Position numbers and translations under genes: made by a program
Notes under the pieces: generated by a model
The model's database searches: none
What the model saw: only the letters and a program-made list of their open reading frames with translations
Told to the model about the DNA's origin: nothing
Assembly: GCA_040753085.1 (NCBI GenBank)
Contig: JBFMHI010000002.1
Coordinates: 4,087-68,086 of the forward strand
DNA: 64,000 nucleotides
Direction of reading: 5' to 3'
From: a bacterium
Lineage (GTDB): Bacteria > UBA9089 > JASEGY01
Part shown: positions 11,056-62,931 of the stretch, one piece after another
Numbering within the stretch: position 1 is the first letter of the stretch
Layout: every line of letters starts with the position of its first letter

Positions 11056-11099
11056 TTTCTCCTTGTATTAGTCCTCAGGGCAATCACCCCAAATTTTAT

Positions 11100-11283
11100 C
11101 GACCTGTATGGTTAGCTTAACCTTACTCACATCTTTTAAAAACCACGAAGCACACGAAGCACACGAAGAATTATAGAACAAATCTTTTAATCCCATTTAC
11201 CTTACCCTTAAATTACTTTCTTCGTGAACTTCGTGTTCTTTGTGGTTTATTTTTGCTTTTCCCTACCTAATCATACAGGTCGA
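11100..11283. mobile_element. MITE-like element with TIR CGACCTGTATGGTTA / TAATCATACAGGTCG, internal CACGAAG heptamer arrays and an 8-bp TSD AATTTTAT
   Basis: AATTTTAT is present immediately on both sides (11092-11099 and 11284-11291). The TIR is related to the 33216-33473 element; the internal arrays ccacgaagcacacgaagcacacgaag / cttcgtgaacttcgtg are inverted relative to each other. Confidence 0.65.
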
Positions 11284-11311
11284 ATTTTATTTTTAGCTTT
11301 TAGGCGGGTCA

Positions 11312-13923: not shown

Positions 13924-14038
13924 AATCGCGAATCGCGGATCGCGAATTGCGAATTAAAAAATAGATTCGCGATTCGCAATTCGAGATTCGCGATTCGATA
14001 TGAATGCTTCCTACATTTTCTTCATAACTTTATATTCT
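13924..14038. repeat. ATTCGCG/AATCGCG heptamer array followed by an approximately 80-bp unit (copy 1)
   Basis: aatcgcgaatcgcggatcgcgaattgcgaatt, then aaaaaatagattcgcgattcgcaattcgagattcgcgattcgatatgaatgcttcc...cattttcttcataacttt. Confidence 0.7.
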
Positions 14039-14070
14039 GAGAAATGTTAAATAAAGCGTCTTCTTCCTTT

Positions 14071-14215
14071 CTACTCCGCCAGGTGCTTGTCTATGAATGA
14101 TCCTTTGGCATATTCCAAGGAATCCAGATCGAGCCACCTGACGACATTATCAGGCAGATAATTCAGGAAGAATTCCTTCGCCGTGTCCCGGCGAGTAAAG
14201 ACCTCTTTGAAAAAA
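14071..14215 (-). pseudogene. N-terminal fragment of an Rpn-family (YhgA/transposase_31-like PD-(D/E)XK) recombination-promoting nuclease
   Basis: Minus-strand translation ...FFKEVFTRRDTAKEFFLNYLPDNVVRWLDLDSLEYAKGSFIDKHLAE* matches the conserved Rpn N-terminus (F.K.F....A.DFL...LP......LDL.TL.LE..SFI). It is truncated after about 45 aa and flanked by direct repeats. Confidence 0.45.
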
Positions 14216-14221
14216 CGGTTA

Positions 14222-14298
14222 CAAAAATAGATTCGCGATTCGCAATTCGAGATTCGCGATCCGATATGAATGCTTCCGGCATTTTCTTCATAACTTTG
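14222..14298. repeat. copy 2 of the approximately 80-bp ATTCGCG-containing unit (direct repeat of 13956-14038)
   Basis: Near-identical sequence: aaaaatagattcgcgattcgcaattcgagattcgcgatccgatatgaatgcttcc.gcattttcttcataacttt. Confidence 0.7.
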
Positions 14299-14861: not shown

Positions 14862-15070
14862 ATACTCGATACTCGATACTCGATGCTCGATACTCGATGT
14901 TCGATACTGGATATTGGATCCTTTACTAGCCTCGAGCATCGAGGATCGAGCATCGAGCATCGAGGATCGAGGATCGAGCATCGAGGATCGAGCATCGAGC
15001 ATCGAGGATCGAGGATCGAGGATCGAGGATCGAGCATCGAGGATCGAGGATCGAGCATCGAGCATCCAGC
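14862..15070. repeat. CATCGAG-family heptamer hairpin (left array CTCGATR about 6 units, centre GGATCCTTTACTAGCC, right array about 20 units of CATCGAG/GATCGAG)
   Basis: Directly visible tandem heptamers; it lacks the outer GTAACCGTTCA termini seen at other copies. Confidence 0.7.
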
Positions 15071-16188: not shown

Positions 16189-16337
16189 GTAACCGTTCAT
16201 CACATGATGCTTGATCCTCGATGCTCGATGCTCGATCCTCGATGCTGGTAAAGGATCCAGTATCCAGGATCGAGCATCGAGCATCGAGCATCGAGCATCG
16301 AGGTTGTGTCTTTGTGGCTTAGTGGCTGAACGGTTAC
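16189..16337. mobile_element. CATCGAG-family MITE (TIR GTAACCGTTCA / TGAACGGTTAC, inverted heptamer arrays around centre GGTAAAGGATCCAGTATCCAGG)
   Basis: gtaaccgttcatcacatgatg...ctcgatg arrays...catcgag arrays...ggctgaacggttac; inserted directly beside the previous element. Confidence 0.7.
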
Positions 16338-16372
16338 TAATTATTAATGATAACTGATCTTAAGGAGTAATC

Positions 16373-27469: not shown

Positions 27470-28456
27470 ATGTTCAAGATGGCTAATAATAGACAGATGA
27501 CATTATTAAAGGCAGAAGAGGAGCATATCAGGAGGGTTCTTCCCTTACTCCTAAAGAAAGATGACAGGTTTAGAACCGAGGTCTCTATTATCCTAAGCGA
27601 GGTCTTTGCCAAGAAGGATGAGCTAAGGATAGTTATAGAGGAGATTCAGAAAAGCAGAGAAGAGACAAGCCGAAGGTTTGAGGAGATGCGAGAAGAGACA
27701 AGCCGAAGGTTTGAGGAGATGCGAGAAGAGACAAACCGAAGGTTTGAGGAGATGCGAGAAGAGACAAACCGAAGGTTTGAGGAGATGCGAGAAGAGACAA
27801 ACCGAAGGTTTGAGGAGATGAACCAAAGGTTTGAAGAACATCGCGAAGAGACAAACCGAAGGTTTGAGGAGATGAACCGAAGGTTTGAAGAACATTGCGA
27901 AGAGACAAACCGAAGGTTTGAGGAGATGAACCGAAGGTTTGAAGAACATCGCGAAGAGACAAATAAGAGGTTTGAGGCAGTAGAAACCCAACTTCAGGAA
28001 CAAACAAAGCAGCTAAGGGAGCATTCAGTCCAACTTCAGGAACAATCAAGGGAAATAAGAAGGATGGGGATAAGCATCAGAACCGTAGGGGCAAGGTGGG
28101 GAATATTTGCTGAAGGGACAATCCGAAATACCTTAAAGGAGCTACTCCTCAAAAAGCTTAAAGTAAAAGAGGTATCCTCGTGGAAGGTAATGGATAAAGA
28201 GGGAAAGGTAGGTATTCCTAATTCAGAGGTAGAGGTAGACATCCTTATCCAGAATGAGAAGCATTTTCTAATAGAGATAAAATCCTCTGCCGATGAAGAA
28301 AATGTAGAGAGGTTTTATAAAATAGGAAATTTTTATTATGAGAAGACAAAGATTAAGCCAAATCTTATCTTTGTAGCGGTGGAGATGAACAAAAAGGGAG
28401 AAGACCTCTGCAAAAAACTAGATATCCAGCTTATAACCTACGAGGATTTGGACTGA
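27470..28456 (+). CDS. tandem-repeat coiled-coil protein with a C-terminal PD-(D/E)XK (restriction-endonuclease-like) domain, possibly DUF3782-like
   Basis: About nine 11-aa repeats REETNRRFEEM, then a C-terminal region with EVEVDILIQNEKHFLIEIKSS (D..E.K pattern) and LIFVAVEM; inserted between rpoC and rpsL. Confidence 0.65.
   Translation: MFKMANNRQMTLLKAEEEHIRRVLPLLLKKDDRFRTEVSIILSEVFAKKDELRIVIEEIQKSREETSRRFEEMREETSRRFEEMREETNRRFEEMREETNRRFEEMREETNRRFEEMNQRFEEHREETNRRFEEMNRRFEEHCEETNRRFEEMNRRFEEHREETNKRFEAVETQLQEQTKQLREHSVQLQEQSREIRRMGISIRTVGARWGIFAEGTIRNTLKELLLKKLKVKEVSSWKVMDKEGKVGIPNSEVEVDILIQNEKHFLIEIKSSADEENVERFYKIGNFYYEKTKIKPNLIFVAVEMNKKGEDLCKKLDIQLITYEDLD
27655..27985 (+). repeat. array of about nine 33-nt tandem repeats (gaagagacaagccgaaggtttgaggagatgcga) inside the CDS
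   Basis: Directly visible near-identical 33-mers; they produce the spurious antisense ORFs 27623-28003 and 27633-28049. Confidence 0.85.
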
Positions 28457-32723: not shown

Positions 32724-32811
32724 GCTCGATGCTCGATGCTCGATGCTGGGTAAAGGATCCCGTATCCAGGATCGAGCATCCAGCATCGAGGATCGAGCAT
32801 CGAGGATCGAG
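32724..32811. repeat. CATCGAG-family heptamer hairpin (no outer TIR) directly after the fusA stop
   Basis: gctcgatgctcgatgctcgatgctgggtaaaggatcccgtatccaggatcgagcatccagcatcgaggatcgagcatcgaggatcgag. Confidence 0.7.
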
Positions 32812-33130: not shown

Positions 33131-33215
33131 TTAGGGCGGACTTGTATCTACTCAGCCCTCATAGGGAACACCGATTATCCAGATTTTTCCCTGATGGCCC
33201 AGATTAAAAATAATT

Positions 33216-33473
33216 CGACCTGTACGGTTAGGTTGTAGACTACTGACGCTGAAAGCGTTGAATTTTAAATAGCCGTAGATGCAATCTCCGGAAACAAATC
33301 GCCACGCTCGACCCTGCAAGGGTCGAATATTATCCATCGCCTAGAATTCAACCCTTTCAGGGTTGAGATGTTCGTAGCTGTTTTACCTTCCGCAGGTTTC
33401 ACCTGTGGTTATGTAAAATTCAAACCTTTCAGGTTTGAAGGGAATTGCTTGTAATCTCTAACCGCACAGGTCG
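33216..33473. mobile_element. 258-bp MITE-like element (TIR CGACCTGTACGGTTA / TAACCGCACAGGTCG), internally a chain of short hairpins, perfect 8-bp TSD AAATAATT; second copy at 50696-50949
   Basis: AAATAATT at 33208-33215 and 33474-33481; internal hairpins gacgctGAAAgcgtc, cgaccctGCAAgggtcg, caaccctTTCAgggttg, caaaccTTTCAggtttg, ccgcaggtttcacctgtgg. The two copies are about 90% identical. Confidence 0.75.
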
Positions 33474-33570
33474 AAATAATTCCTGAGAAGGGCTGAAATC
33501 GGGGTGCCTCTTTTGGTTTGGCTGAATATTTAGATGGGGGAGTGCAGGATAAAAAACCATGAATAAACAA

Positions 33571-36406: not shown

Positions 36407-36467
36407 AGGGCGGATTGCGGATTGCGGATTGAAGATTTTAAATCCGAAATCAGAAATCCGAAATCCG
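36407..36467. repeat. CGGATTG / AATCCGA heptamer inverted arrays in the rpsS-rplV spacer
   Basis: ggattgcggattgcggattgaagattttaaatccgaaatcagaaatccgaaatccgcaat. Confidence 0.7.
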
Positions 36468-36486
36468 CAATAATCAGGAGACTTAG

Positions 36487-37574: not shown

Positions 37575-37592
37575 TTAGCCATTAACAATTAT

Positions 37593-37754
37593 GTAACCGT
37601 TCATCCCATAAGGCTGGATGCTGGATGCTCGATTCTCGATGTTCGATCCTCGATGCTGGATACTGGATCCTTTACCAGCATCGAGGATCGAACATCGAGA
37701 ATCGAGCATCGAGCATCGAGGATCGAGTTTGTGCCTTAGGGGCTGAACGCTTAC
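37593..37754. mobile_element. CATCGAG-family MITE with TIR GTAACCGTTCA / TGAACGCTTAC and a perfect 8-bp TSD ACAATTAT
   Basis: ACAATTAT at 37585-37592 and 37755-37762; inverted heptamer arrays around centre GGATACTGGATCCTTTACCAGC. Confidence 0.8.
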
Positions 37755-37787
37755 ACAATTATTAATTGTTAATGGTAAATTATAATT

Positions 37788-42701: not shown

Positions 42702-43139
42702 ATGAGACTTAACGAATTAAGGCCTCCTAAAGGGGCCAAAAAGGCTAAAAAGCGGGTGGGTCGAGGGGTTGGTTCAGGCAGAGGGAAAACGGCCGGCCGT
42801 GGACACAAGGGCCAGTTAGCTCGGTCAGGCGGTAGATCACGACGGGGATTTGAAGGGGGTCAGATGCCGCTCGCCCGAAGGGTTCCTAAAAGAGGATTTA
42901 CCAGCCTTAAAAAGAAATTGTATGCGATAGTAAATGTGCAAGACTTAAACCGGTTTGAGTCAGGGGCCTTGATTACACCGGATGTGCTTAAAGAAAGCGG
43001 ACTGATAAAAGGGACCAAGTATGGGGTTAAGATTTTAGGGAAAGGCGACTTGAAGGTTCCTTTGATGGTAGGGATTGGGTGGATGAGTGAAGGCGCCAAG
43101 GCGAAAATCTTGAGGGCGGGAGGAAGCGTCGAGGGATGA
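42702..43139 (+). CDS. rplO: 50S ribosomal protein L15
   Basis: Gly/Arg-rich N-terminus typical of L15. Confidence 0.95.
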   Translation: MRLNELRPPKGAKKAKKRVGRGVGSGRGKTAGRGHKGQLARSGGRSRRGFEGGQMPLARRVPKRGFTSLKKKLYAIVNVQDLNRFESGALITPDVLKESGLIKGTKYGVKILGKGDLKVPLMVGIGWMSEGAKAKILRAGGSVEG

Positions 43140-44452
43140 TTAACAGTATTGCTAGCCCTTTTAAGGCGCCGGATTTACGAAAGCGGATTCTCTTTACCGT
43201 CGCCTTGCTTGCTGTCTATAGGGTGGGGGCCTTTGTCCCAACTCCAGGGATAAATGGGCCGGCTCTCTCCGATTGGTTTCAACAACTGAAAGGGACGATC
43301 TTCGGTTTTCTTAATCTCTTCTCCGGTGGCGCCTTCGAGCAATTTTCCGTCTTTTCCCTGGGGATTATGCCCTATATCTCTGCCTCTATCATCCTCCAGC
43401 TTTTTACCATTGTCTTTCATTATTACGAAAAGCTTTCCAAAGAAGGAGACCAGGGAAGGAAAAAGATTACGCAACATACCCGATATGGCACTATTATCAT
43501 AAGTATCATTCAGGCTCTGGGGGTCGGTTCCTACCTTCAAAGTCAGGTGGCTCCTTCCGGAGAGCCGATTGTTTACAATCCGGGTGTTAGTTTTCTCTTG
43601 ATGACGGTTCTTACCCTCACTACGGGCACGGCTTTTATTATGTGGTTAGGGGAGCAGATTTCCGATAGAGGGATGGGAAATGGGATGTCGCTGATTATAG
43701 CGACAGGTATCATCGCTAATATCCCCGGGGCCATATCCAATACTGCCAAACTTGTCTTGACCGGCGAAATGAATCTCCTATCCCTAATCGGGATCATTAT
43801 CGTTATCGTGGCGGTTACGGCGGCCGTAGTGATTATGCTCCAGGGACAGCGCCGAATTCCGGTTCAATATGCCAAGCGGGTGGTGGGACGCAAGGTTTAT
43901 GGGGGGCAGAGCACCCATATCCCTCTTCAGATAAATCCGGCCGGGGTTATCCCGGTTATATTTGCCGCGGCTATCCTCGATTTTCCCAGGACAGTAGCTC
44001 TCTTCTTTAGTCAGAAAAACGTCATTGTGAGCACCTTTGTTAATATGTTCAGCCGGGAACATGTAGTTTATTCCCTTTTTTATTTTGTTATGGTTATTTT
44101 CTTTACCTACTTTTATACGGCCATTGTTTTTAAACCCGATGAGGTGGCTGACAATATGCGTAAATACGGGGGTTTTGTGCCGGGTATTCGTCCGGGCAAA
44201 CCCACCGCTGACTATATCGAAAGGGTATTGAGCCGAATTGTCCTGGTGGGAGCGGTATTTTTAGCCTTGATTGCCCTGCTTCCTTCCATTCTTTATATGA
44301 GCCTGAAAGTGCCCTTTTGGTTCGGAGGTACCTCACTTTTAATTGTAGTGGGGGTAGTGCTGGATACGGTGAAACAGATTGAATCACAGCTCTTAATGAG
44401 TCATTATGAAGGATTTCTGAAGAAGGGCAAGTTAAGGGGACGGTTGAGGTAA
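43136..44452 (+). CDS. secY: preprotein translocase subunit SecY
   Basis: 438 aa, 10 predicted TM helices, SecY-like sequence; operon position. Confidence 0.95.
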   Translation: MINSIASPFKAPDLRKRILFTVALLAVYRVGAFVPTPGINGPALSDWFQQLKGTIFGFLNLFSGGAFEQFSVFSLGIMPYISASIILQLFTIVFHYYEKLSKEGDQGRKKITQHTRYGTIIISIIQALGVGSYLQSQVAPSGEPIVYNPGVSFLLMTVLTLTTGTAFIMWLGEQISDRGMGNGMSLIIATGIIANIPGAISNTAKLVLTGEMNLLSLIGIIIVIVAVTAAVVIMLQGQRRIPVQYAKRVVGRKVYGGQSTHIPLQINPAGVIPVIFAAAILDFPRTVALFFSQKNVIVSTFVNMFSREHVVYSLFYFVMVIFFTYFYTAIVFKPDEVADNMRKYGGFVPGIRPGKPTADYIERVLSRIVLVGAVFLALIALLPSILYMSLKVPFWFGGTSLLIVVGVVLDTVKQIESQLLMSHYEGFLKKGKLRGRLR

Positions 44453-44463
44453 TTAATAATTGG

Positions 44464-44597
44464 TAACCGTTCATCCCATGAGGCTAGAGGCTCGATCCTC
44501 GATGCTCGATGCTGGTAAAGGATCCAGTATCCAGGATCGAGCATCGAAGATCGAGCATCGAGTGGGTGTTTTTGTGCCTTACGGGCTGAACGCTTAT
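44464..44597. mobile_element. CATCGAG-family MITE (TIR GTAACCGTTCA / TGAACGCTTAT) with a perfect 8-bp TSD AATAATTG
   Basis: AATAATTG at 44456-44463 and 44598-44605. Confidence 0.8.
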
Positions 44598-44621
44598 AAT
44601 AATTGTTAATTATTAAGAAGG

Positions 44622-45266
44622 ATGAGACTAATACTTTTAGGCCCTCCAGGGTCAGGCAAGGGAACTCAAGCTAAGTTTTTGATGACCAGCCACGGTATCC
44701 CTCAGATATCTACCGGTGATATATTGAGGGAAGCCGTGGCTAAAGGCACCAAATTAGGCCAGGAAGCAAAGGCTTATATGGAAGAGGGAAAACTGGTGCC
44801 CGATAAGCTCATCGTAGATATTATTAGAGAGAGGTTAGTAAAACCGGATTGTAAGAAGGGTTTTATCCTTGACGGGTTCCCTCGGACCCAGGCCCAGGCC
44901 GAGGCCTTACGGACCACCCTGGCTGAGATGGGTATCTCACTTTCTGCCGTCCTTAACATTCAGGTGGATGAACCTACCCTGGTTAGAAGACTTTCCGGGA
45001 GAAGGATTTGTCGTGATTGTCAAACCCCCTACCATATAGATTTTTCTCCACCTAAGATTTCTAATAAGTGTGATAAATGCGATGGGGAACTCTACCAGAG
45101 GAAGGACGATAAAGAAGAAGTAATTAAAAATCGACTGAAGGTCTATCTTGATCAAACAGAACCACTAATCAAGTATTATAAAGACCTGAGCGGGGTGCTT
45201 AAAGATATAGATGGAAAGGGAGAGATCGAGGAGATCTTTGATCGAATCGTAAGCGTCCTGAAATGA
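44622..45266 (+). CDS. adk: adenylate kinase (zinc-binding lid CRDC...CDKC)
   Basis: P-loop GPPGSGKGT; Cys4 lid. Confidence 0.95.
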   Translation: MRLILLGPPGSGKGTQAKFLMTSHGIPQISTGDILREAVAKGTKLGQEAKAYMEEGKLVPDKLIVDIIRERLVKPDCKKGFILDGFPRTQAQAEALRTTLAEMGISLSAVLNIQVDEPTLVRRLSGRRICRDCQTPYHIDFSPPKISNKCDKCDGELYQRKDDKEEVIKNRLKVYLDQTEPLIKYYKDLSGVLKDIDGKGEIEEIFDRIVSVLK

Positions 45267-47245: not shown

Positions 47246-47302
47246 ATAATTGATAATGGTCAATTACTAATTGTTAATGGAGAAGAGGGGGGTGTGGTTT
47301 AG

Positions 47303-48718: not shown

Positions 48719-48730
48719 TTAACAATTATC

Positions 48731-48866
48731 GTAACCGTTCATCACATGATGCTCGATGCTCGATCCTGGATGCTCGATGCTCGATGACGGGATCCTTTTT
48801 TATCATCGAGGATCGAGCTTCGAGGATCGAGTTGGTGTCCTTGTGCCTGAGGGGCTGAACGTTTAC
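48731..48866. mobile_element. CATCGAG-family MITE (TIR GTAACCGTTCA / TGAACGTTTAC), TSD CAATTATC / CAATTATT (7 of 8)
   Basis: gtaaccgttcatcacatgatgctcgatgctcgatcctggatgctcgatgctcgatgacgggatccttttttatcatcgaggatcgagcttcgaggatcgag...ggctgaacgtttac. Confidence 0.75.
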
Positions 48867-49033
48867 CAATTATTAATTCAGCTGGGCGAAAGTTTCGGGG
48901 TGGTTTCAGGAGGGTTGGAGGATTCATCACTTGAATCCTCCAACCCTTGACCCCTATCTGACTTCAAACCAGGCAGGAATTTACGCCGGGCTGTATTAAT
49001 GGTTAATTACCAGTATTGGAGGGAAATAGTGGT

Positions 49034-50545: not shown

Positions 50546-50695
50546 GGCGTTTACCTTCCGCCAGCTACCTAACAGTCAATGTATTTCTTTTTCATGCCGA
50601 TTCTCCTTTCTATAACACATTGCTATCATATTAGAGATATCGACATAATTGCCTAATAACTAAATCAAAGGTCATGGAAAAATTTCGACCTGTAC

Positions 50696-50949
50696 GGTTA
50701 AGGTTGTAGACTACTACTGACGCTGAAAGCGTCAAATTTTAAATAGCCGTAGGTGCAAGCTACGGAAGATAAATACATCCGCAACGCTCGACCCTGCAAG
50801 GGTCGAATTATCCATCACATAGAATTCAACCCTTTCAGGGTTGAGCTGTGGTAGATGCTTCGTTTCCGCAGGTTTTACCTGTGGTTATGTAAAATTCAAA
50901 CCTTTCAGGTTTGAGGAGAATTGCTTGTAATTCCTAACCGTACGGGTCG
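50696..50949. mobile_element. second copy of the approximately 258-bp structured MITE (TIR CGACCTGTACGGTTA / TAACCGTACGGGTCG)
   Basis: About 90% identical to 33216-33473, including all internal hairpins. Confidence 0.75.
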
Positions 50950-50957
50950 AAATTTTT

Positions 50958-51245
50958 CGACCTGTGAAATAGGTTTATACAAATATCCCCCAATTAGGGT
51001 AAGAAAGAGAATAAACAGATCGCTCCTCTGGAGCTAATTTGTTATGAGAGATATATTCTACAAACATGTCGCTCCTCTGGAGCTAACCTGAATAAAGCTC
51101 CGTAGGAGAGCAATCTGTTTGTAGTATTTCGCAAAAGCAATATATTTGCAGCTCCGTAGGAGCGACCTGTTTTTAGTAGTAGAGCTTGAATATCTATGTC
51201 TATGGGAAGTTTCTTGCATTTTATTTAAATCTATTTCACAGGTCG
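50958..51245. mobile_element. 288-bp MITE (20-bp TIR CGACCTGTGAAATAGGTTTA / TAAATCTATTTCACAGGTCG) with a perfect 8-bp TSD AAATTTTT; the internal GCTCC-nnn-GGAGC hairpin units (GTCGCTCCTACGGAGC and its variant GCTCCAGAGGAGC) are arranged as a long palindrome; inverted copy at 62578-62866
   Basis: AAATTTTT at 50950-50957 and 51246-51253; the element is inserted immediately after the terminus of the previous element. Confidence 0.8.
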
Positions 51246-51261
51246 AAATTTTTCTTCACGG

Positions 51262-51294
51262 GTAACCGTTCATCCCATGAGGCTGAACGCTTAC
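51262..51294. mobile_element. minimal ('solo-TIR') CATCGAG-family element, GTAACCGTTCATCCCATGAGGCTGAACGCTTAC, with a perfect 8-bp TSD CTTCACGG
   Basis: CTTCACGG at 51254-51261 and 51295-51302; it contains only the two termini, with the heptamer core absent. Confidence 0.75.
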
Positions 51295-51327
51295 CTTCAC
51301 GGCTGACGCATAAATTACCGAATATTA

Positions 51328-52086
51328 ATGTCAAGGTCAAAAACTATGTCCATCTATAAAACCAGGGCCATTGTTTTAAGAACCAGGGAGTTAGGCGAGA
51401 CAAGCCGGATTATTAGGCTGTATTCTCTTAGGTATGGTAAGATAGATGCTGTAGCTAAAGGAATCAGGAACTTGACTTCCCGTTTTGGGGCGAGACTGGA
51501 GCCTTTTACCCTGGTCGATCTGGTCCTTTGGGGAGATGTAGAAAAAGAAGGACTCCAGATCATTACCCAGGCCCAAATTATTAATTCACATCAAGCCCTG
51601 CGTGAAGACCTCGACCGGATAGCTATCAGCTCCTTTCTGGTCGAGTTAGTAGAATCCCTGGTTGAAGGAGGCAGTGAGGCGAATATCTTTTATCTCCTTG
51701 AAAACTTCCTTTACGCCTTAGAGACCAGAATCTCTCCCCTGTTTATTTACGCCTTTTTGCTTAAATTACTTTCCTTGCTTGGCCTTAAGCCCCATCTAAA
51801 AGACTGTCTAAATTGTCACGGCCAAGTAGAGACCAGGGTCGTATTTTCTGCCGCCGAGGGAGGAATTTTCTGCCTTTCCTGTGCTCCACCCCGAGGAGTA
51901 ATCACTATTTCAGCCGGAACCCTGGCGCTGGCCAAACAGCTTTTGGCCCTTCCCCCCTTAAAGATAGACCAAATAAGGCCTTCCCCCCCTCTCTTGCTCG
52001 AGCTGAAATCAATGATTCTTGACCATTTATTGGCTCAGCATCTGCCGAGGCATCTGAAAAGCTTGAAGTTCCTTATTATTCCTTGA
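51328..52086 (+). CDS. recO: DNA repair protein RecO
   Basis: OB-fold N-terminus, C4 zinc finger CLNCHG...CLSC. Confidence 0.85.
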   Translation: MSRSKTMSIYKTRAIVLRTRELGETSRIIRLYSLRYGKIDAVAKGIRNLTSRFGARLEPFTLVDLVLWGDVEKEGLQIITQAQIINSHQALREDLDRIAISSFLVELVESLVEGGSEANIFYLLENFLYALETRISPLFIYAFLLKLLSLLGLKPHLKDCLNCHGQVETRVVFSAAEGGIFCLSCAPPRGVITISAGTLALAKQLLALPPLKIDQIRPSPPLLLELKSMILDHLLAQHLPRHLKSLKFLIIP

Positions 52087-56531: not shown

Positions 56532-58829
56532 ATGAAAGATTTCAATCTCTTACAGGTAAGCAGTATAATTTTACTCCTTTTGCTCTTCCTCCCTGGTTGC
56601 TGGACCAGGGATGAAGTAATGACCATCCGTCTTTGGGAATTCCCCCGCTGGCGTGAGGGGGATGAGCTGGACCGCTTTGTCTGGATCAAGCGTCAGATAG
56701 CCGAGTTTGAAGCGAGCCATCCTGGGGTCAAGATCGAGTTGACTGAGTTGACCTGGGATAGGGGCCAGGATAAGATCCGGATCGCCACCGCGGCCGGGTT
56801 GGGGCCGGACATTGTCTCCGGCAGTCTGCCGGTGGAATATATTGAAGCCGGAGTGATAGAACCAATAGATGATTATCTGGCTCTCGAGGATAAGAAAGAT
56901 TACTACCCGGCCGGCTTCAGCGCCTATACCTATAAAGGCAAACACTGGGGCTGGCCATGGTTTCTGACCGGTCAGATGCTTTTTTTGAATCTGGATATAT
57001 TTAAAGAACGGGGAGTGGAACCCCCACAGGGTCCCTGGACTTACGAAGAGTTTGCCGCTAAAATGAAGGCCATGACCTTTGATTCTGACGGAGATAAAAG
57101 GGTAGACACTTATGGCTTCGGCTTTACAGTCACTCCCGGCGCCACCGATATCTGGCCATTTCTTTATATGGATGGCGGCCGCGCCTTGAGTGATGATCTC
57201 ACGCAATATACCTTTGATGAACCACCTGGCGTCTCCGGCCTGAGCCAACTGCGGGACCTGGTCCATACCTACCGGGTGTCTTTACCGGAGAGTGGTGGTC
57301 TGAAAACAACCGACCTCTGGCAGGCCTTTGCCAAGCAGAGACGGATTGCCTGCGCTCCCTGGGGTATTTGGGCCATCCCTGCCCTAAGGTTTGATGAGGC
57401 CCAAAAAGCGAAGGGATTAACGGAGGAGGATTTCTTTGACTTCACGGTGGTCGGTTATCCTATGGGCAAGAGCGGCCAACCTTTAACTTTCATTGGGGTA
57501 AGTGGGTTCATTGTCTTTAAACAGCCTGACCCTGCCAGGCGAGATATGTGCATAGAACTGGCTAAATCTCTTACCAGCGGTCAGAACCAGAAGGCTCTGG
57601 CTGCTTATGGGGTCTTTCCTACCCGCGTCTCAGCCGGGAATATTTATCCGGACGATCCCTATATGACTAAGGCGGCTAAAATCCTTCAGGATGGCCTAAC
57701 TGTTCCGGCTCATCCTGATTGGGGTAAGATGGATGAGGTCATTCAGCGGCAGATCCAATTGGCTGTTTTGGGTGAAAAAAGTGCGGCTGCCGCCCTGACT
57801 GATGCCGGAGTAGAGGTTGAAGCTATCCTGTCTCAAAGGCTAAAGACCACTGCCGACTTGAAGGGCATTGGAGTCGGGGAAAAGGCGGGAAACTACCTCT
57901 ATCTTTTTCTATTTCTGGCTGGAGCCTTGATACTCTGGTTAGGACTGAAGATGAGGGGCATAAAGGAATCCACCCGCTTTGCCTACCTAGCTATTTCCCC
58001 GGCGATGCTTATCTTTGCCGTTTTCCTGGCCTTTCCGGTCGGTCGGGCCTTTTTATTGGCCTTTCAGGAATACGAAATCGGCGGCCCTATCCTGGGGAAT
58101 TGGGTCGGCGCCGACAACTTTCGGGCCTTAGCTAAAAATGAGGTCTTCTGGAAATCCCTGAAGAATACCCTGGTCTACACGGCCTTTACGGTCCCGATAA
58201 ATGTCCTGATTGCCCTTATTCTGGCTAGCCTCATTCATCCCTTATCCGACCGCATGCGGACCTTTTTCCGGGCGGCCTATTATCTCCCCCATGTCACCTC
58301 AGTAGTGGTCATCTCCATGGTCTGGCGCTGGCTTTTTGATTACAACTACGGTCTCTTAAACCAGGTCCTTACCGGCCTGGGCCTTGAAGGCCTTCACTGG
58401 CTGACTGATGTTCACCTGGCCATGGGCAGCATCATTGGCTCCAGCCTGCTTTACACCCCTGGCGGCCCGATTATTATCTATCTGGCGGCTCTGGCGGCCA
58501 TGCCTTCTTCCCTTCACGAAGCAGCCCTGATGGACGGGGCCGGGCCAATCCGCCGCTGGTGGCACATCACCCTCCCCCTGCTTCGACCCACTACCCTGTT
58601 TTTGTTAGTCACTACTTCCATCGCCTCCTTTCAGGTCTTTGCCCAGGTGCTCATTCTAACTGATGGCGGCCCTGGCTATGCCACTTCTGTCTTAGTTCAC
58701 CGCATCTACACCACCGCCTTTAGAGACTTTGACTTCGGCCTCGCCTCAGCTATGGCCTTGATTCTTTTTGTAGTCATTATGACTATCTCTGCCATCCAAT
58801 TTAAGATTTTCAGGAAAAAATGGGAGTAA
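56532..58829 (+). CDS. fused ABC transporter: carbohydrate substrate-binding lipoprotein (aa 1 to about 450) plus permease domain (aa about 460-765)
   Basis: Lipoprotein signal LLLLLFLPGCW; SBP family 1-like domain; then 6 TM helices with EAA loop EAALMDGAGPIRRWWHITLP in the same reading frame. Confidence 0.7.
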   Translation: MKDFNLLQVSSIILLLLLFLPGCWTRDEVMTIRLWEFPRWREGDELDRFVWIKRQIAEFEASHPGVKIELTELTWDRGQDKIRIATAAGLGPDIVSGSLPVEYIEAGVIEPIDDYLALEDKKDYYPAGFSAYTYKGKHWGWPWFLTGQMLFLNLDIFKERGVEPPQGPWTYEEFAAKMKAMTFDSDGDKRVDTYGFGFTVTPGATDIWPFLYMDGGRALSDDLTQYTFDEPPGVSGLSQLRDLVHTYRVSLPESGGLKTTDLWQAFAKQRRIACAPWGIWAIPALRFDEAQKAKGLTEEDFFDFTVVGYPMGKSGQPLTFIGVSGFIVFKQPDPARRDMCIELAKSLTSGQNQKALAAYGVFPTRVSAGNIYPDDPYMTKAAKILQDGLTVPAHPDWGKMDEVIQRQIQLAVLGEKSAAAALTDAGVEVEAILSQRLKTTADLKGIGVGEKAGNYLYLFLFLAGALILWLGLKMRGIKESTRFAYLAISPAMLIFAVFLAFPVGRAFLLAFQEYEIGGPILGNWVGADNFRALAKNEVFWKSLKNTLVYTAFTVPINVLIALILASLIHPLSDRMRTFFRAAYYLPHVTSVVVISMVWRWLFDYNYGLLNQVLTGLGLEGLHWLTDVHLAMGSIIGSSLLYTPGGPIIIYLAALAAMPSSLHEAALMDGAGPIRRWWHITLPLLRPTTLFLLVTTSIASFQVFAQVLILTDGGPGYATSVLVHRIYTTAFRDFDFGLASAMALILFVVIMTISAIQFKIFRKKWE

Positions 58830-60595: not shown

Positions 60596-61537
60596 TCAGG
60601 TAGCTGAGAGGTGTCCACCCCAGCGGAGCTTTGTTTTCAAGACCTGGTAAAAACTCCTGGCCTCGGGCTTGACTAAATAAATACACTCTTTGGCCTTTCC
60701 GGCGGTGATTCTGTCGCCTGACTTTAATGGATAGCCTGACTGGCCATCCTGGGTGAGCATCATCTCTCCTCGCGGTCCGGAGGAGACAACCAGGGATATC
60801 TCCTCATCAGGGCCAATGATGACAGGTCGCAGGGCCAGGGTATGAGGGCAAATAGGCGTGGCCATCAAGACCTCTAATCCGGGATTCAAGATTGGCCCAC
60901 CAGCCGAGAGGGAGTAAGCCGTAGAGCCGGTGGGGGTGGCCAGGATCATCCCGTCGGCTTCAAAGTTGGCTACTAATTCATCAGCAATAAAGAGGGTAAT
61001 GTTGATAGACCTGGCTAATGCCCCGCAGGTGATGACCACATCGTTTAAGGCCTTAAAGGCGGCGGCTTCAGTTCCTTCTCTCTCCACCTTCGCCTCCAGC
61101 ATCATCCTGGGCTCCAGTTCAAAGCGGTGGGCTAAGATGGACTCGATGGCAGGAAAAAGTTCCTCCTGGGTTACTTCGGTTAGAAAACCCAGGCTGCCTA
61201 AATTCACCGCCAGAATAGGCACGCCTTCAGGCCAGGCCAGTTGGGCCGTGTGAAGAAGGGTGCCATCTCCGCCCAGGGCGATAAGTAGGTCGGCCTCAGC
61301 TCCCAAATTAGCTGAAACAGAAATGGCTTTCTTGGCCAGGTCTAAAGACGCCCCTGGTTCGATAAGGGCCTTAATGTCCTTCTTATCCAGCCAGTCAATC
61401 AATTTAGAGGCCACTACTGCCGCCCCTGGCCGGTAAGGATTGACTACCAAACCTATCTTCTTTATGGCGGATGGCGCACCCACTTTGTGGGTAGCCGGGA
61501 TTGCGGATTGCGGATTGCGGATTGCGGATTGTTTCAT
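60596..61537 (-). CDS. nadK: NAD+ kinase (true start probably downstream of the repeat-encoded N-terminus)
   Basis: GGDGTLL motif and NAD-kinase fold. The track N-terminus MKQSAIRNPQSAIP is translated from a CAATCCG heptamer array. Confidence 0.85.
   Translation of the reverse strand: MKQSAIRNPQSAIPATHKVGAPSAIKKIGLVVNPYRPGAAVVASKLIDWLDKKDIKALIEPGASLDLAKKAISVSANLGAEADLLIALGGDGTLLHTAQLAWPEGVPILAVNLGSLGFLTEVTQEELFPAIESILAHRFELEPRMMLEAKVEREGTEAAAFKALNDVVITCGALARSINITLFIADELVANFEADGMILATPTGSTAYSLSAGGPILNPGLEVLMATPICPHTLALRPVIIGPDEEISLVVSSGPRGEMMLTQDGQSGYPLKSGDRITAGKAKECIYLVKPEARSFYQVLKTKLRWGGHLSAT
61493..61532. repeat. CGGATTG heptamer array (x5) at the 5' end of nadK
   Basis: gggattgcggattgcggattgcggattgcggattg. 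Confidence 0.7.
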
Positions 61538-61555
61538 CAGAAAAACTCCCTAATA

Positions 61556-61640
61556 TGGATGCTGGATGCTCGATACTCGATACTCGATACTCGATGCTCG
61601 AGCCTCGAGTATCGAGTATCGAGTATAGAGCATCGAGGAT
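61556..61640. repeat. CATCGAG-family heptamer hairpin (no outer TIR)
   Basis: gatgctggatgctcgatactcgatactcgatactcgatgctcgagcctcgagtatcgagtatcgagtatagagcatcgagg. Confidence 0.7.
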
Positions 61641-62352: not shown

Positions 62353-62405
62353 AAGTTTAATAGATAGTAACTATTCAGCCACACAGATTTAAACACTGAT
62401 TTTTT

Positions 62406-62577
62406 GTAACCGTTCAGCCACCAAGGCACGAAGACACGAAGGGAAAAAAATATGTGTCTTAGAGAGCAGTAGAGCCATAGAGCAGCCGTTCTGGAACTTT
62501 CAGAAAAATCTCTAACTACTGCTCTGCTGCTCTACTGCTCTATTTTTGTGTCTTTGTGTCTTTGTGGCTGAACACTT
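62406..62577. mobile_element. GTGTCTT-family MITE (TIR GTAACCGTTCAGCCAC / GTGGCTGAACACTTAC) with a nested AGAGCAG/CTGCTCT heptamer hairpin
   Basis: Two nested inverted heptamer arrays (cacgaagacacgaag/gtgtctttgtgtctttgtgg and agagcagtagagccatagagcag/ctgctctgctgctctactgctct); the right terminus is interrupted by the next element. Confidence 0.7.
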
Positions 62578-62866
62578 ACGACCTGTGAAATAGGTTTAAA
62601 TAAAATGCAAGAAATTTCCCATAGACATAGATATTCAAGCTCTACTCCTACTAAAAACAGGTCGCTCCTACGGAGCTGCAAATATATGCTTTTGCGAAAT
62701 ACTACAAACAGATTGCTCCTACGGAGCTTTATTCAGGTTAGCTCCAGAGGAGCGACATGTTTGTAGAATATATCTCTCATAACAAATTAGCTCCAGAGGA
62801 GCGATCTGTTTATTCTCTTTCTTACCCTAATTGGGGGATATTTGTATAAACCTATTTCACAGGTCG
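62578..62866. mobile_element. inverted copy of the 288-bp MITE (TIR CGACCTGTGAAATAGGTTTA) with a perfect 8-bp TSD AACACTTA, inserted into the terminus of the preceding element
   Basis: AACACTTA at 62570-62577 and 62867-62874; the sequence is the reverse complement of 50958-51245 at about 95% identity. Confidence 0.8.
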
Positions 62867-62931
62867 AACACTTACAACTCATTCTATTTTATCCGTGCTA
62901 ATCCGTGTTAATCAGTGGCTGAATAGTTACG

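Follow-up and report, generated by a model that had tools for sequence, protein, structure and literature searches.

The 900-bp spacer between rplQ (L17, 50056-50427) and recO (51328-52086) on contig JBFMHI010000002.1 is very probably an insertion hot spot occupied by three DNA transposons, all non-autonomous, that represent two unrelated families. The stretch analyzed, referred to here as the window, spans 64,000 bp of a bacterial metagenome-assembled genome (MAG) and carries a ribosomal-protein/RNA-polymerase super-operon; rplQ and recO were confirmed by Pfam. Its host is unclassified. The RpoA of the window and NCBI MEW5766122.1 are 100% identical; the closest other relative (L001) reaches 78%, and named phyla reach at most 60%. 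On the same assessment, the two larger elements of the block, referred to as MITE-A (264 bp) and MITE-B (288 bp), are MITEs (miniature inverted-repeat transposable elements) linked to insertion sequences (ISs) resembling the ISKra4 and ISLre2 families, and the third, a 33-bp element, has ends that resemble those of IS66/ISBst12 elements.

MITE-A and MITE-B have the termini CGACCTGT...ACAGGTCG in common. Elements with these ends show the features of MITEs: they possess terminal inverted repeats (TIRs) and an 8-bp target-site duplication (TSD) that varies by copy, are small (177-346 bp) and multicopy, lack a conserved open reading frame (ORF), and form whole-element palindromes. A sequence-only reading of the window had described the block as three different MITEs, each with a perfect 8-bp TSD, that record successive insertions. 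Its view of the block as MITE-type, non-autonomous elements that produce 8-bp duplications in separate insertion events was borne out, as were the limits of the 288-bp element (50958-51245, with 20-bp TIRs matching at 19/20 positions and AAATTTTT on both sides) and of the 33-bp element (51262-51294, with CTTCACGG on both sides). The first two elements are not of different kinds, since they have one terminus type, and the first was placed too short: an end-to-end alignment with the copy at 33216-33473 moves its start from 50696 to 50686 and its length from 254 to 264 bp. Perfect duplications flank the 288-bp and 33-bp elements, and the flanks of MITE-A agree at only 6/8 positions. An inverted copy of MITE-B had likewise been recognized, correctly, within the terminus of a heptamer element and with a perfect TSD, AACACTTA, and begins at 62579 instead of 62578.

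Duplications were scored in 13 complete elements with CGACCTGT...ACAGGTCG termini, comprising ten MITEs and three complete ISs from the window, MAG210, a Nitrospira-labelled contig, and metagenomes. Perfect 8-bp duplications surround 9/13 of them. An 8/8 match has a probability of 6.6e-5 for random pairs of 8-mers from the window and of 0.029 under a model of the family's target preference; under the latter model, nine or more perfect duplications among 13 would arise with P = 9e-12. The duplications are thus real and far beyond chance. Within the window, four of the five CGACCTGT elements possess perfect duplications (AATTTTAT, AAATAATT, AAATTTTT, and AACACTTA), and the consensus of the duplicated sites is AAAWWTTT. 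The expectation that flanks of further copies would also be duplicated held at 11100 and 33216, in MAG210, on the Nitrospira-labelled contig, and around full-length ISs. A 10-bp duplication with GACCTG ends was also considered; it fits the copy at 62579 and fails at 11100.

Copies of the family in other genomes were located by a scan for the 20-mer terminus in which each species was represented by one genome; it yielded six contigs of MAG210 and one labelled Nitrospira. The MAG210 copies are 79-91% identical to those of the window, with perfect duplications on L003 (TATTTTTT) and L006 (AAATTCTT) and partial ones on L004 (7/8) and L007 (6/8). On the contig labelled Nitrospira sp. (SBAY01000261.1, L008:228-404), a 177-bp element with a perfect duplication, ATATTTTT, has the same 15-21-nt ends around an unrelated interior, so that the TIR is the conserved part of the element. 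Unrelated interiors behind one terminus point to recurrent acquisition of new cores, to movement between lineages, or to a wrongly binned contig. A second CGACCTGT...GTGAAATAG match on L008 (7234) lies within an ispG-like gene and was set aside as a chance match. Three scans of viral contigs for the termini gave no matches. The pattern of one terminus around differing interiors also includes L003:3593-3938 and L005:7315-7439, with a 346-bp MAG210 variant that has ~150 bp of extra sequence.

ISs that carry a transposase gene between matching ends were found in other metagenomes. A metagenome scan for the 20-mer terminus recovered five contigs, on each of which only one terminus was present, with no second one close by. 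On L011 and L012, a 103-aa ORF fragment reaches its stop codon 10 bp inward of the terminus, and this fragment matches the NCBIfam profiles of ISLre2 (5.6e-11) and ISKra4 (1.1e-10) in their C-terminal parts. On L013, a 360-aa N-terminal reading frame begins 60 bp inward of the terminus and reaches the contig end; these 360 aa are not recognized by Pfam or NCBIfam, and family matches come only from the C-terminal part or from full-length homologues. A search with the L013 protein returned 132 homologues, mostly on contigs of 1.3-3 kb, a length that is expected because ISs break assemblies. The autonomous ISs measure 1.66-1.68 kb, have inverted repeats (IRs) of ~17-20 bp with C as the first base (GACCTGTG), and show perfect 8-bp duplications in two of four complete copies. 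MITE-B is identical in its first 19 bases to the left IR (IRL) of L014, and the termini of L017, L013, and L011 also match MITE-B. Beyond the terminal 15-19 bp, the MITEs and ISs have nothing in common, so that the MITEs must be something other than plain internal deletion derivatives of the ISs found. The terminal repeat common to both is presumably the transposase-binding end. Among L013, L014, L015, and L017, the transposases are ~60% identical to the L013 protein, and a -1 frameshift at ATG TCN AAA AAA AAR is conserved, ORF1 (~100 codons, frame 2) overlapping ORF2 (~440 codons, frame 1) at TCN AAA AAA AAR. This conserved site looks like one of programmed frameshifting or transcriptional slippage. 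The more distant members, L016 and L023, have a single unsplit ORF.

Full-length homologues match ISKra4 at up to 4.4e-26 (profile positions 24-409 of 422), ISLre2 at up to 1.6e-20, and ISH6 weakly; Pfam recognized only UPF0236, in one distant member. Prokaryotic Mutator-like families have IRs of 18-39 bp with a terminal conserved C and 8- or 9-bp duplications, and the transposase of the ISMich2 group consists of two ORFs joined by a -1 frameshift, a hallmark of that group (p-MULT 4; Guerillot et al. 2014, PMC3942029). The ISs described here resemble the ISKra4/ISMich2 elements in their ~20-bp IRs with terminal C, their 8-bp duplications, and a -1-split transposase rejoined on an A-run. They differ in that scores fall far under the profile cut-off, ISLre2 scores nearly as well, and L016 and L023 are unsplit, which makes them a divergent clade. 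By resemblance, the partner of the MITEs would be an ISKra4-family, ISMich2-like IS whose DDE transposase is distantly related to those of ISKra4 and ISLre2; it may represent a sister clade, because its scores stay under the profile cut-offs. A transposase of this kind, supplied in trans, would bind the 15-20-bp terminal repeats of MITE-A and MITE-B and make a staggered 8-bp cut at an AAAWWTTT target, and repair would duplicate the 8 bp. For MITE-A, the predicted autonomous partner is an IS with CGACCTGTACGGTTAGG ends. Features of the window and complete ISs are listed in Table 1.

Table 1. Elements, flanking repeats, and related ISs (window coordinates unless a contig is named)
Feature	Position	Strand	Details
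MITE-A, CGACCTGT superfamily	50686..50949 (264 bp)	+	whole element an imperfect palindrome
MITE-A TIRs	50686-50700, 50935-50949		CGACCTGTACGGTTA, TAACCGTACGGGTCG; match 14/15
MITE-A left flank	50678..50685	.	AAAAATTT; 6/8 vs right flank AAATTTTT
MITE-A right flank and left copy of MITE-B duplication	50950..50957	.	AAATTTTT
MITE-B, 288 bp	50958..51245	+	TIR CGACCTGTGAAATAGGTTTA and its reverse complement, 19/20
Right copy of MITE-B duplication	51246..51253	.	AAATTTTT; 8/8
Left copy of duplication, 33-bp element	51254..51261	.	CTTCACGG
33-bp element, core-less GTAACCGTTCA...TGAACGCTTAC family member	51262..51294	+	GTAACCGTTCATCCCATGAGGCTGAACGCTTAC; ends form 10/11 inverted repeat
Right copy of duplication, 33-bp element	51295..51302	.	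CTTCACGG; 8/8
183-bp relative	11100..11282	+	TIRs CGACCTGTATGGTTAG / CTAATCATACAGGTCG; TSD AATTTTAT perfect at 11092-11099, 11283-11290
Second MITE-A copy (258 bp) in the rpsJ-rplC spacer	33216..33473	+	TSD AAATAATT perfect at 33208-33215, 33474-33481
Second MITE-B copy, inverted, 97% identical	62579..62866	-	TSD AACACTTA perfect at 62571-62578, 62867-62874
Three-level nest	62367..62930	+	outer GTAACTATTCAGCCAC...GTGGCTGAATAGTTAC, then GTAACCGTTCAGCC...GGCTGAACACTTAC, then MITE-B
IS L014 (GCA_040757115.1), complete, frameshifted	L014:1160-2819 (1660 bp)		ends CGACCTGTGAAATAGGTTTT (IRL), TAGACCTATTTCACAGGTCG; TSD AAAGATTT 8/8
IS L017, complete, frameshifted	L017:100-1781 (1682 bp)		TSD AAAAATTT 8/8
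IS L016, complete, marine sample	L016:1780-3457		ends CGACCTGTGCAGTGAAAA; TSD 7/8
IS L023, complete			ends CGACCTGTGCAATAGGTTT; without duplication
IS L015, frameshifted	L015:1301-2916		
IS L013, frameshifted	L013:1-1164	-	

The history of the block can be approached through its flanks. When MITE-B and the 33-bp element are removed, each with one copy of its duplication, the sequence ...GGGTCG AAATTTTT CTTCACGG CTGACG... remains, and the pre-insertion sequence reconstructed in the sequence-only reading follows directly. The original spacer probably read ...CATGG AAAAATTTTT CTTCACGG CTGACG..., where AAAAATTTTT is an A5T5 tract, and the empty junction predicted in the rplQ-recO spacer is CATGGAAAAATTTTTCTTCACGGCTGACG. 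A 6-bp duplication of AAATTT for MITE-A and an 8-bp duplication of AAATTTTT for MITE-B reproduce the observed bases exactly, in either order of insertion; an 8-bp duplication for both leaves two bases unaccounted for. A tract of A5T5 fits the AAAWWTTT preference ideally. The second element could land beside the first because a duplication recreates the A5T5/AAAWWTTT target on both sides of the insert, and this recreation is a sufficient reason for tandem insertion. MITE-A is probably the older insert of the two, because the 264- and 258-bp copies differ by 14% (86% identity, end to end) and the 288-bp copies by 3%. The two 97%-identical copies of MITE-B also agree with the earlier suggestion of recent activity, and their presence at two different sites, one of them within another repeat, hints at mobility.

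The flanks of MITE-A admit another origin, namely recombination between two copies of the element or a chimeric assembly join, in which case the adjacency of rplQ and recO would itself be doubtful. The contig belongs to a MAG, rplQ is followed in the nearest relative (L001) by a His_biosynth gene and not by recO, and the 6/8 agreement of the flanks is uninformative, because unrelated targets of the family agree with one another at 4.9/8 positions on average and reach 6/8 in 10/36 pairs. Against such an event, the A5T5 tract with 6-bp and 8-bp duplications yields exactly the sequence observed; an 8-bp duplication could also have been altered by slippage in the A- and T-runs, and the 14% divergence of the MITE-A copies points to an older insert with time for such changes. 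In addition, the matched flanks of MITE-B and of the 33-bp element mean that no join lies inside them. Recombination or a chimeric join is thus unlikely, and insertion of MITE-A into the spacer is preferred.

The 33-bp element belongs to a family with GTAAC-type ends, which is represented in the window by at least eight copies (16189, 17426, 37593, 44463, 48731, 51262, 56379, and 62406), accompanied by a sister type, GTAACTATTCAGCCAC...GTGGCTGAATAGTTAC, at 58826 and 62367. Full-length GTAAC members are 89-174 bp and the sister type is up to 200 bp in length. In order, they comprise GTAACCGTTCA(T/G)C.C..., a heptamer array (GATGCTC and its variants), a loop, the array's inverse, and ...GGCTGAACGCTTAC. 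At 37593, 44463, and 51262 the duplication is perfect, and at 48731 it matches at 7/8. The 33-bp element joins the initial 23 nt of the copy at 44463 to its final 10 nt at a GGCT microhomology, and GGCT borders the heptamer core on either side in the full-length copies compared (44463-44597 and 37593-37754). From this arrangement, it is most likely a GTAAC copy that was stripped of its hairpin core by deletion or slippage between the GGCT repeats. The alternative is that it transposed as a 33-bp unit, a minimal mobile element of fused terminal repeats. Its perfect 8-bp duplication, its intact termini, and the 10/11 inverted repeat formed by its ends speak for such a unit. This origin is nonetheless improbable: no second copy exists in the window, in the 22 loci searched, or in viral contigs, the junction falls at the very microhomology that borders the core in full-length copies, long perfect hairpins are prone to deletion, and family lengths already range from 89 to 174 bp.

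The ends and the 8-bp duplication of the 33-bp element point to an IS66/ISBst12-type transposase. IRs of IS66 begin with GTAAGCG and are accompanied by 8-bp duplications (PMC11946415), and an IS66-type end reading GTAAGCGTCCGG... has been reported (PMC12888890). ISDge4, a member of the ISBst12 group from Deinococcus geothermalis for which transposition was demonstrated experimentally, has TIRs GTAACTGCTCAGCA / GTGACTACTCAGCA with a GTAAC..CTCAGC pattern and produces 8-bp duplications (PMC12898284). In the window, the sequence is GTAAGCGTTCAGCC at right ends and GTAACCGTTCA at left ends, and the subfamily end GTAACTATTCAGCC matches ISDge4 at 11/14 positions. The likeness lies in the ends, GTAACTATTCAGCC and GTAA(C/G)CGTTCAGCC compared with GTAACTGCTCAGCA, and in 8-bp duplications, which in the window are perfect at three of ten copies and 7/8 at one; in contrast to these ISs, the window elements are non-coding, 33-200 bp in length, and packed with heptamer-repeat hairpins. 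The family to which the 33-bp element belongs thus has GTAA(C/G)CGTTCA ends and normally contains a heptamer hairpin, missing from this copy, and an IS66/ISBst12-type transposase would be the probable agent of its mobilization.

An AT-rich palindromic context, TTAACAATTATTAA, surrounds several GTAACCGTTCA-type elements, with 9 matches in place of the 0.9 expected. Sites of this kind occur at 37582-37772, 44453-44609, 48720-48876, and 16334-16347, and an unoccupied look-alike lies just upstream of rpsM (47264-47277). Since nearly identical contexts recur at several copies, the GTAACCGTTCA family seems to prefer a specific target motif. Heptamer hairpins without GTAAC-type termini (GATTCGC, TCGAGGA/ATACTCG, GCTCGAT, GCGGATT, and GATACTC) are also numerous in the window. 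Such termini-free arrays are located at 13924-14297, 14862-15066, 32724-32811, 36410-36471, and 61498-61637; one large array adjoins tRNA-Trp, and a 75-nt direct repeat with 96% identity is found at 13957-14031 and 14223-14297. It is conceivable, if rather doubtful, that the heptamer hairpins of this genome (STRR-like, GATGCTC/GAGCATC) are variable cargo of a MITE chassis mobilized by IS66/ISBst12-type enzymes, of which the 33-bp element would be a cargo-free example. Transposition would then be the means by which heptamer arrays are disseminated, and the arrays would lengthen or shorten within a mobile shell; this would supply a concrete origin for STRR-type repeats outside cyanobacteria, and the bare 33-bp shell might rank among the smallest transposable units known.

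Several observations weigh against the assignment of the block to two families of IS-mobilized MITEs. No autonomous IS was seen in the window, and the closest complete one (L014) comes from another MAG. MITE-A shares only its terminal 8-11 bases with the ISs found, and its flanks (AAAAATTT / AAATTTTT) are not a perfect 8-bp duplication, their inner 6 bp (AAATTT) alone forming a perfect direct repeat. One complete IS, L023, lacks a duplication, as do 6/10 GTAAC copies, in which a clear duplication is absent or degraded. The ISKra4 score of the transposase is 92 bits, set against an NCBIfam equivalog cut-off of 205, so the family was placed by resemblance. No transposase with GTAAC ends was found, the viral-contig scans being empty and the genome and metagenome scans having targeted the CGACCTGT family. 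Finally, no empty site, orthologous or polymorphic, was recovered, and synteny in L001 differs after rplQ.

The sequence-only reading had also proposed that the same or a related transposase may mobilize both families, as both produce 8-bp duplications; that their members adjoin and nest in each other also speaks for it. This idea is not supported by comparison of the ends, parent families, and target preferences. The CGACCTGT and GTAAC termini have no similarity, and the targets differ (AAAWWTTT versus TTAACAATTATTAA-like palindromes). The CGACCTGT ends bound ISKra4/ISLre2-like ISs, a group with a conserved C at the end of its IRs (PMC3942029), whereas GTAA(G/C)CG ends accompanied by 8-bp duplications mark a different family, IS66/ISBst12 (PMC11946415, PMC12898284). 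A common transposase is accordingly very improbable, and it is by coincidence that two unrelated families duplicate the same number of bases.

A very improbable alternative is that the elements are immobile, structured regulatory or terminator repeats (REP/BIME-like) whose flanks merely reflect AT-rich surroundings: the folds are very strong (z = -10.7 for MITE-A, at -115.6 kcal/mol for its RNA, and z = -8.6 for MITE-B) and terminator-like hairpins number 8 in 50700-51170 compared with 1.2 expected by shuffling, but the copy-specific duplications are far above chance and include AACACTTA and CTTCACGG, which are not AT-rich, identical termini bound transposase-encoding ISs, and Rfam at gathering thresholds reported only tRNA-Trp and no match to the elements. 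The eight hairpins, each a short GC stem with a T-rich tail, lie on both strands within MITE-A and MITE-B, and bidirectional termination between rplQ and recO is a role that the block might have. Such secondary transcriptional effects of MITE hairpins are possible and would not explain the origin of the elements.

The interior of MITE-B contains the unit ACAG(A/G)TCGCTCC-N4-GGAGC four times, two per orientation (51010-51175, and 62650-62815 in the second copy). One internal unit reads AAAACAGGTCG, which equals 8 bases of the MITE-B terminus, and in a 241-bp MAG210 variant (L007:128-368) the segment between two direct unit copies is precisely gone. These units may be internal pseudo-ends or additional transposase-binding sites. 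The inverted MITE-B copy is lodged in the right terminus (TGAACACTTAC) of the GTAAC-type heptamer element that starts at 62406. This middle element of the nest, GTAACCGTTCAGCC...GGCTGAACACTTAC, comprises 62406-62578 plus a final C at 62875, and the predicted pre-insertion junction at 62.5 kb is GGCTGAACACTTACAACTC. The nest is flanked by the gene for an ABC-transporter ATPase and by a gene for a fused nucleotidyltransferase/HepT-like protein.

Repeats are also held by other spacers of the ribosomal operons, namely rpsJ-rplC (33216-33473), the interval between the ORFs at 43136-44452 and 44622-45266 (44463-44597), and rpsD-rpoA (48731-48866). Transcription of these operons would be expected to carry such repeats into essential mRNAs as long hairpins. 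The rpsD-rpoA-rplQ spacers of L001 contain no MITEs; its rpsD-rpoA spacer has a short heptamer hairpin only, without a GTAAC element. Just downstream of rpoC, the ORF at 27470-28456 includes long tandem repeats of 33, 54, and 108 nt (up to 99% matches) at 27657-28002 and appears to be a repetitive coding region.

The three elements of the rplQ-recO spacer are an ordinary, though well-preserved, case of MITE insertion. Bacterial MITEs such as Correia, ERIC, RUP, and Nezha are small, palindromic, and intergenic, have TIRs and target duplications, and are often nested or clustered; the heptamer tandem repeats known as STRR in cyanobacteria resemble, by description, the heptamers of the window. 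The present elements differ from these in their uncultured, non-cyanobacterial host, their termini, and their parent IS families. Eukaryotic Mutator-derived MITEs and Mutator-like elements (MULEs) likewise combine a transposase of the Mutator superfamily with non-coding derivatives bounded by TIRs, duplications of 8-9 bp, and a preference for AT-rich or intergenic targets. The window elements differ in being bacterial and in their much shorter TIRs, so that kinship is confined to the superfamily level; the parallel with MULEs has been drawn for prokaryotic Mutator-like elements in general (PMC3942029). In the searchable literature, no description of MITE derivatives of the ISKra4/ISMich2 group was found, and a search with the CGACCTGT terminus returned nothing relevant, a paper on MITEs and heptamers of Thiomargarita being unrelated.

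The present case leaves the understanding of MITEs unchanged: the element families are new and their kind is known. What is new is the parent IS clade, its target, and its frameshifted transposase. A set of MITEs is now linked to the ISKra4/ISLre2 (prokaryotic Mutator-like) group, and the clade is defined by ends reading CGACCTGTG..., an 8-bp duplication, an AAAWWTTT target, and a conserved -1 frameshift site. Since repeats of this kind lie in ribosomal-protein operon spacers and recur across MAGs, they matter for the quality of assembly and binning and for annotation. The block also suggests a simple reason for side-by-side insertion, in that a preferred target, once duplicated, reappears beside the first insert.

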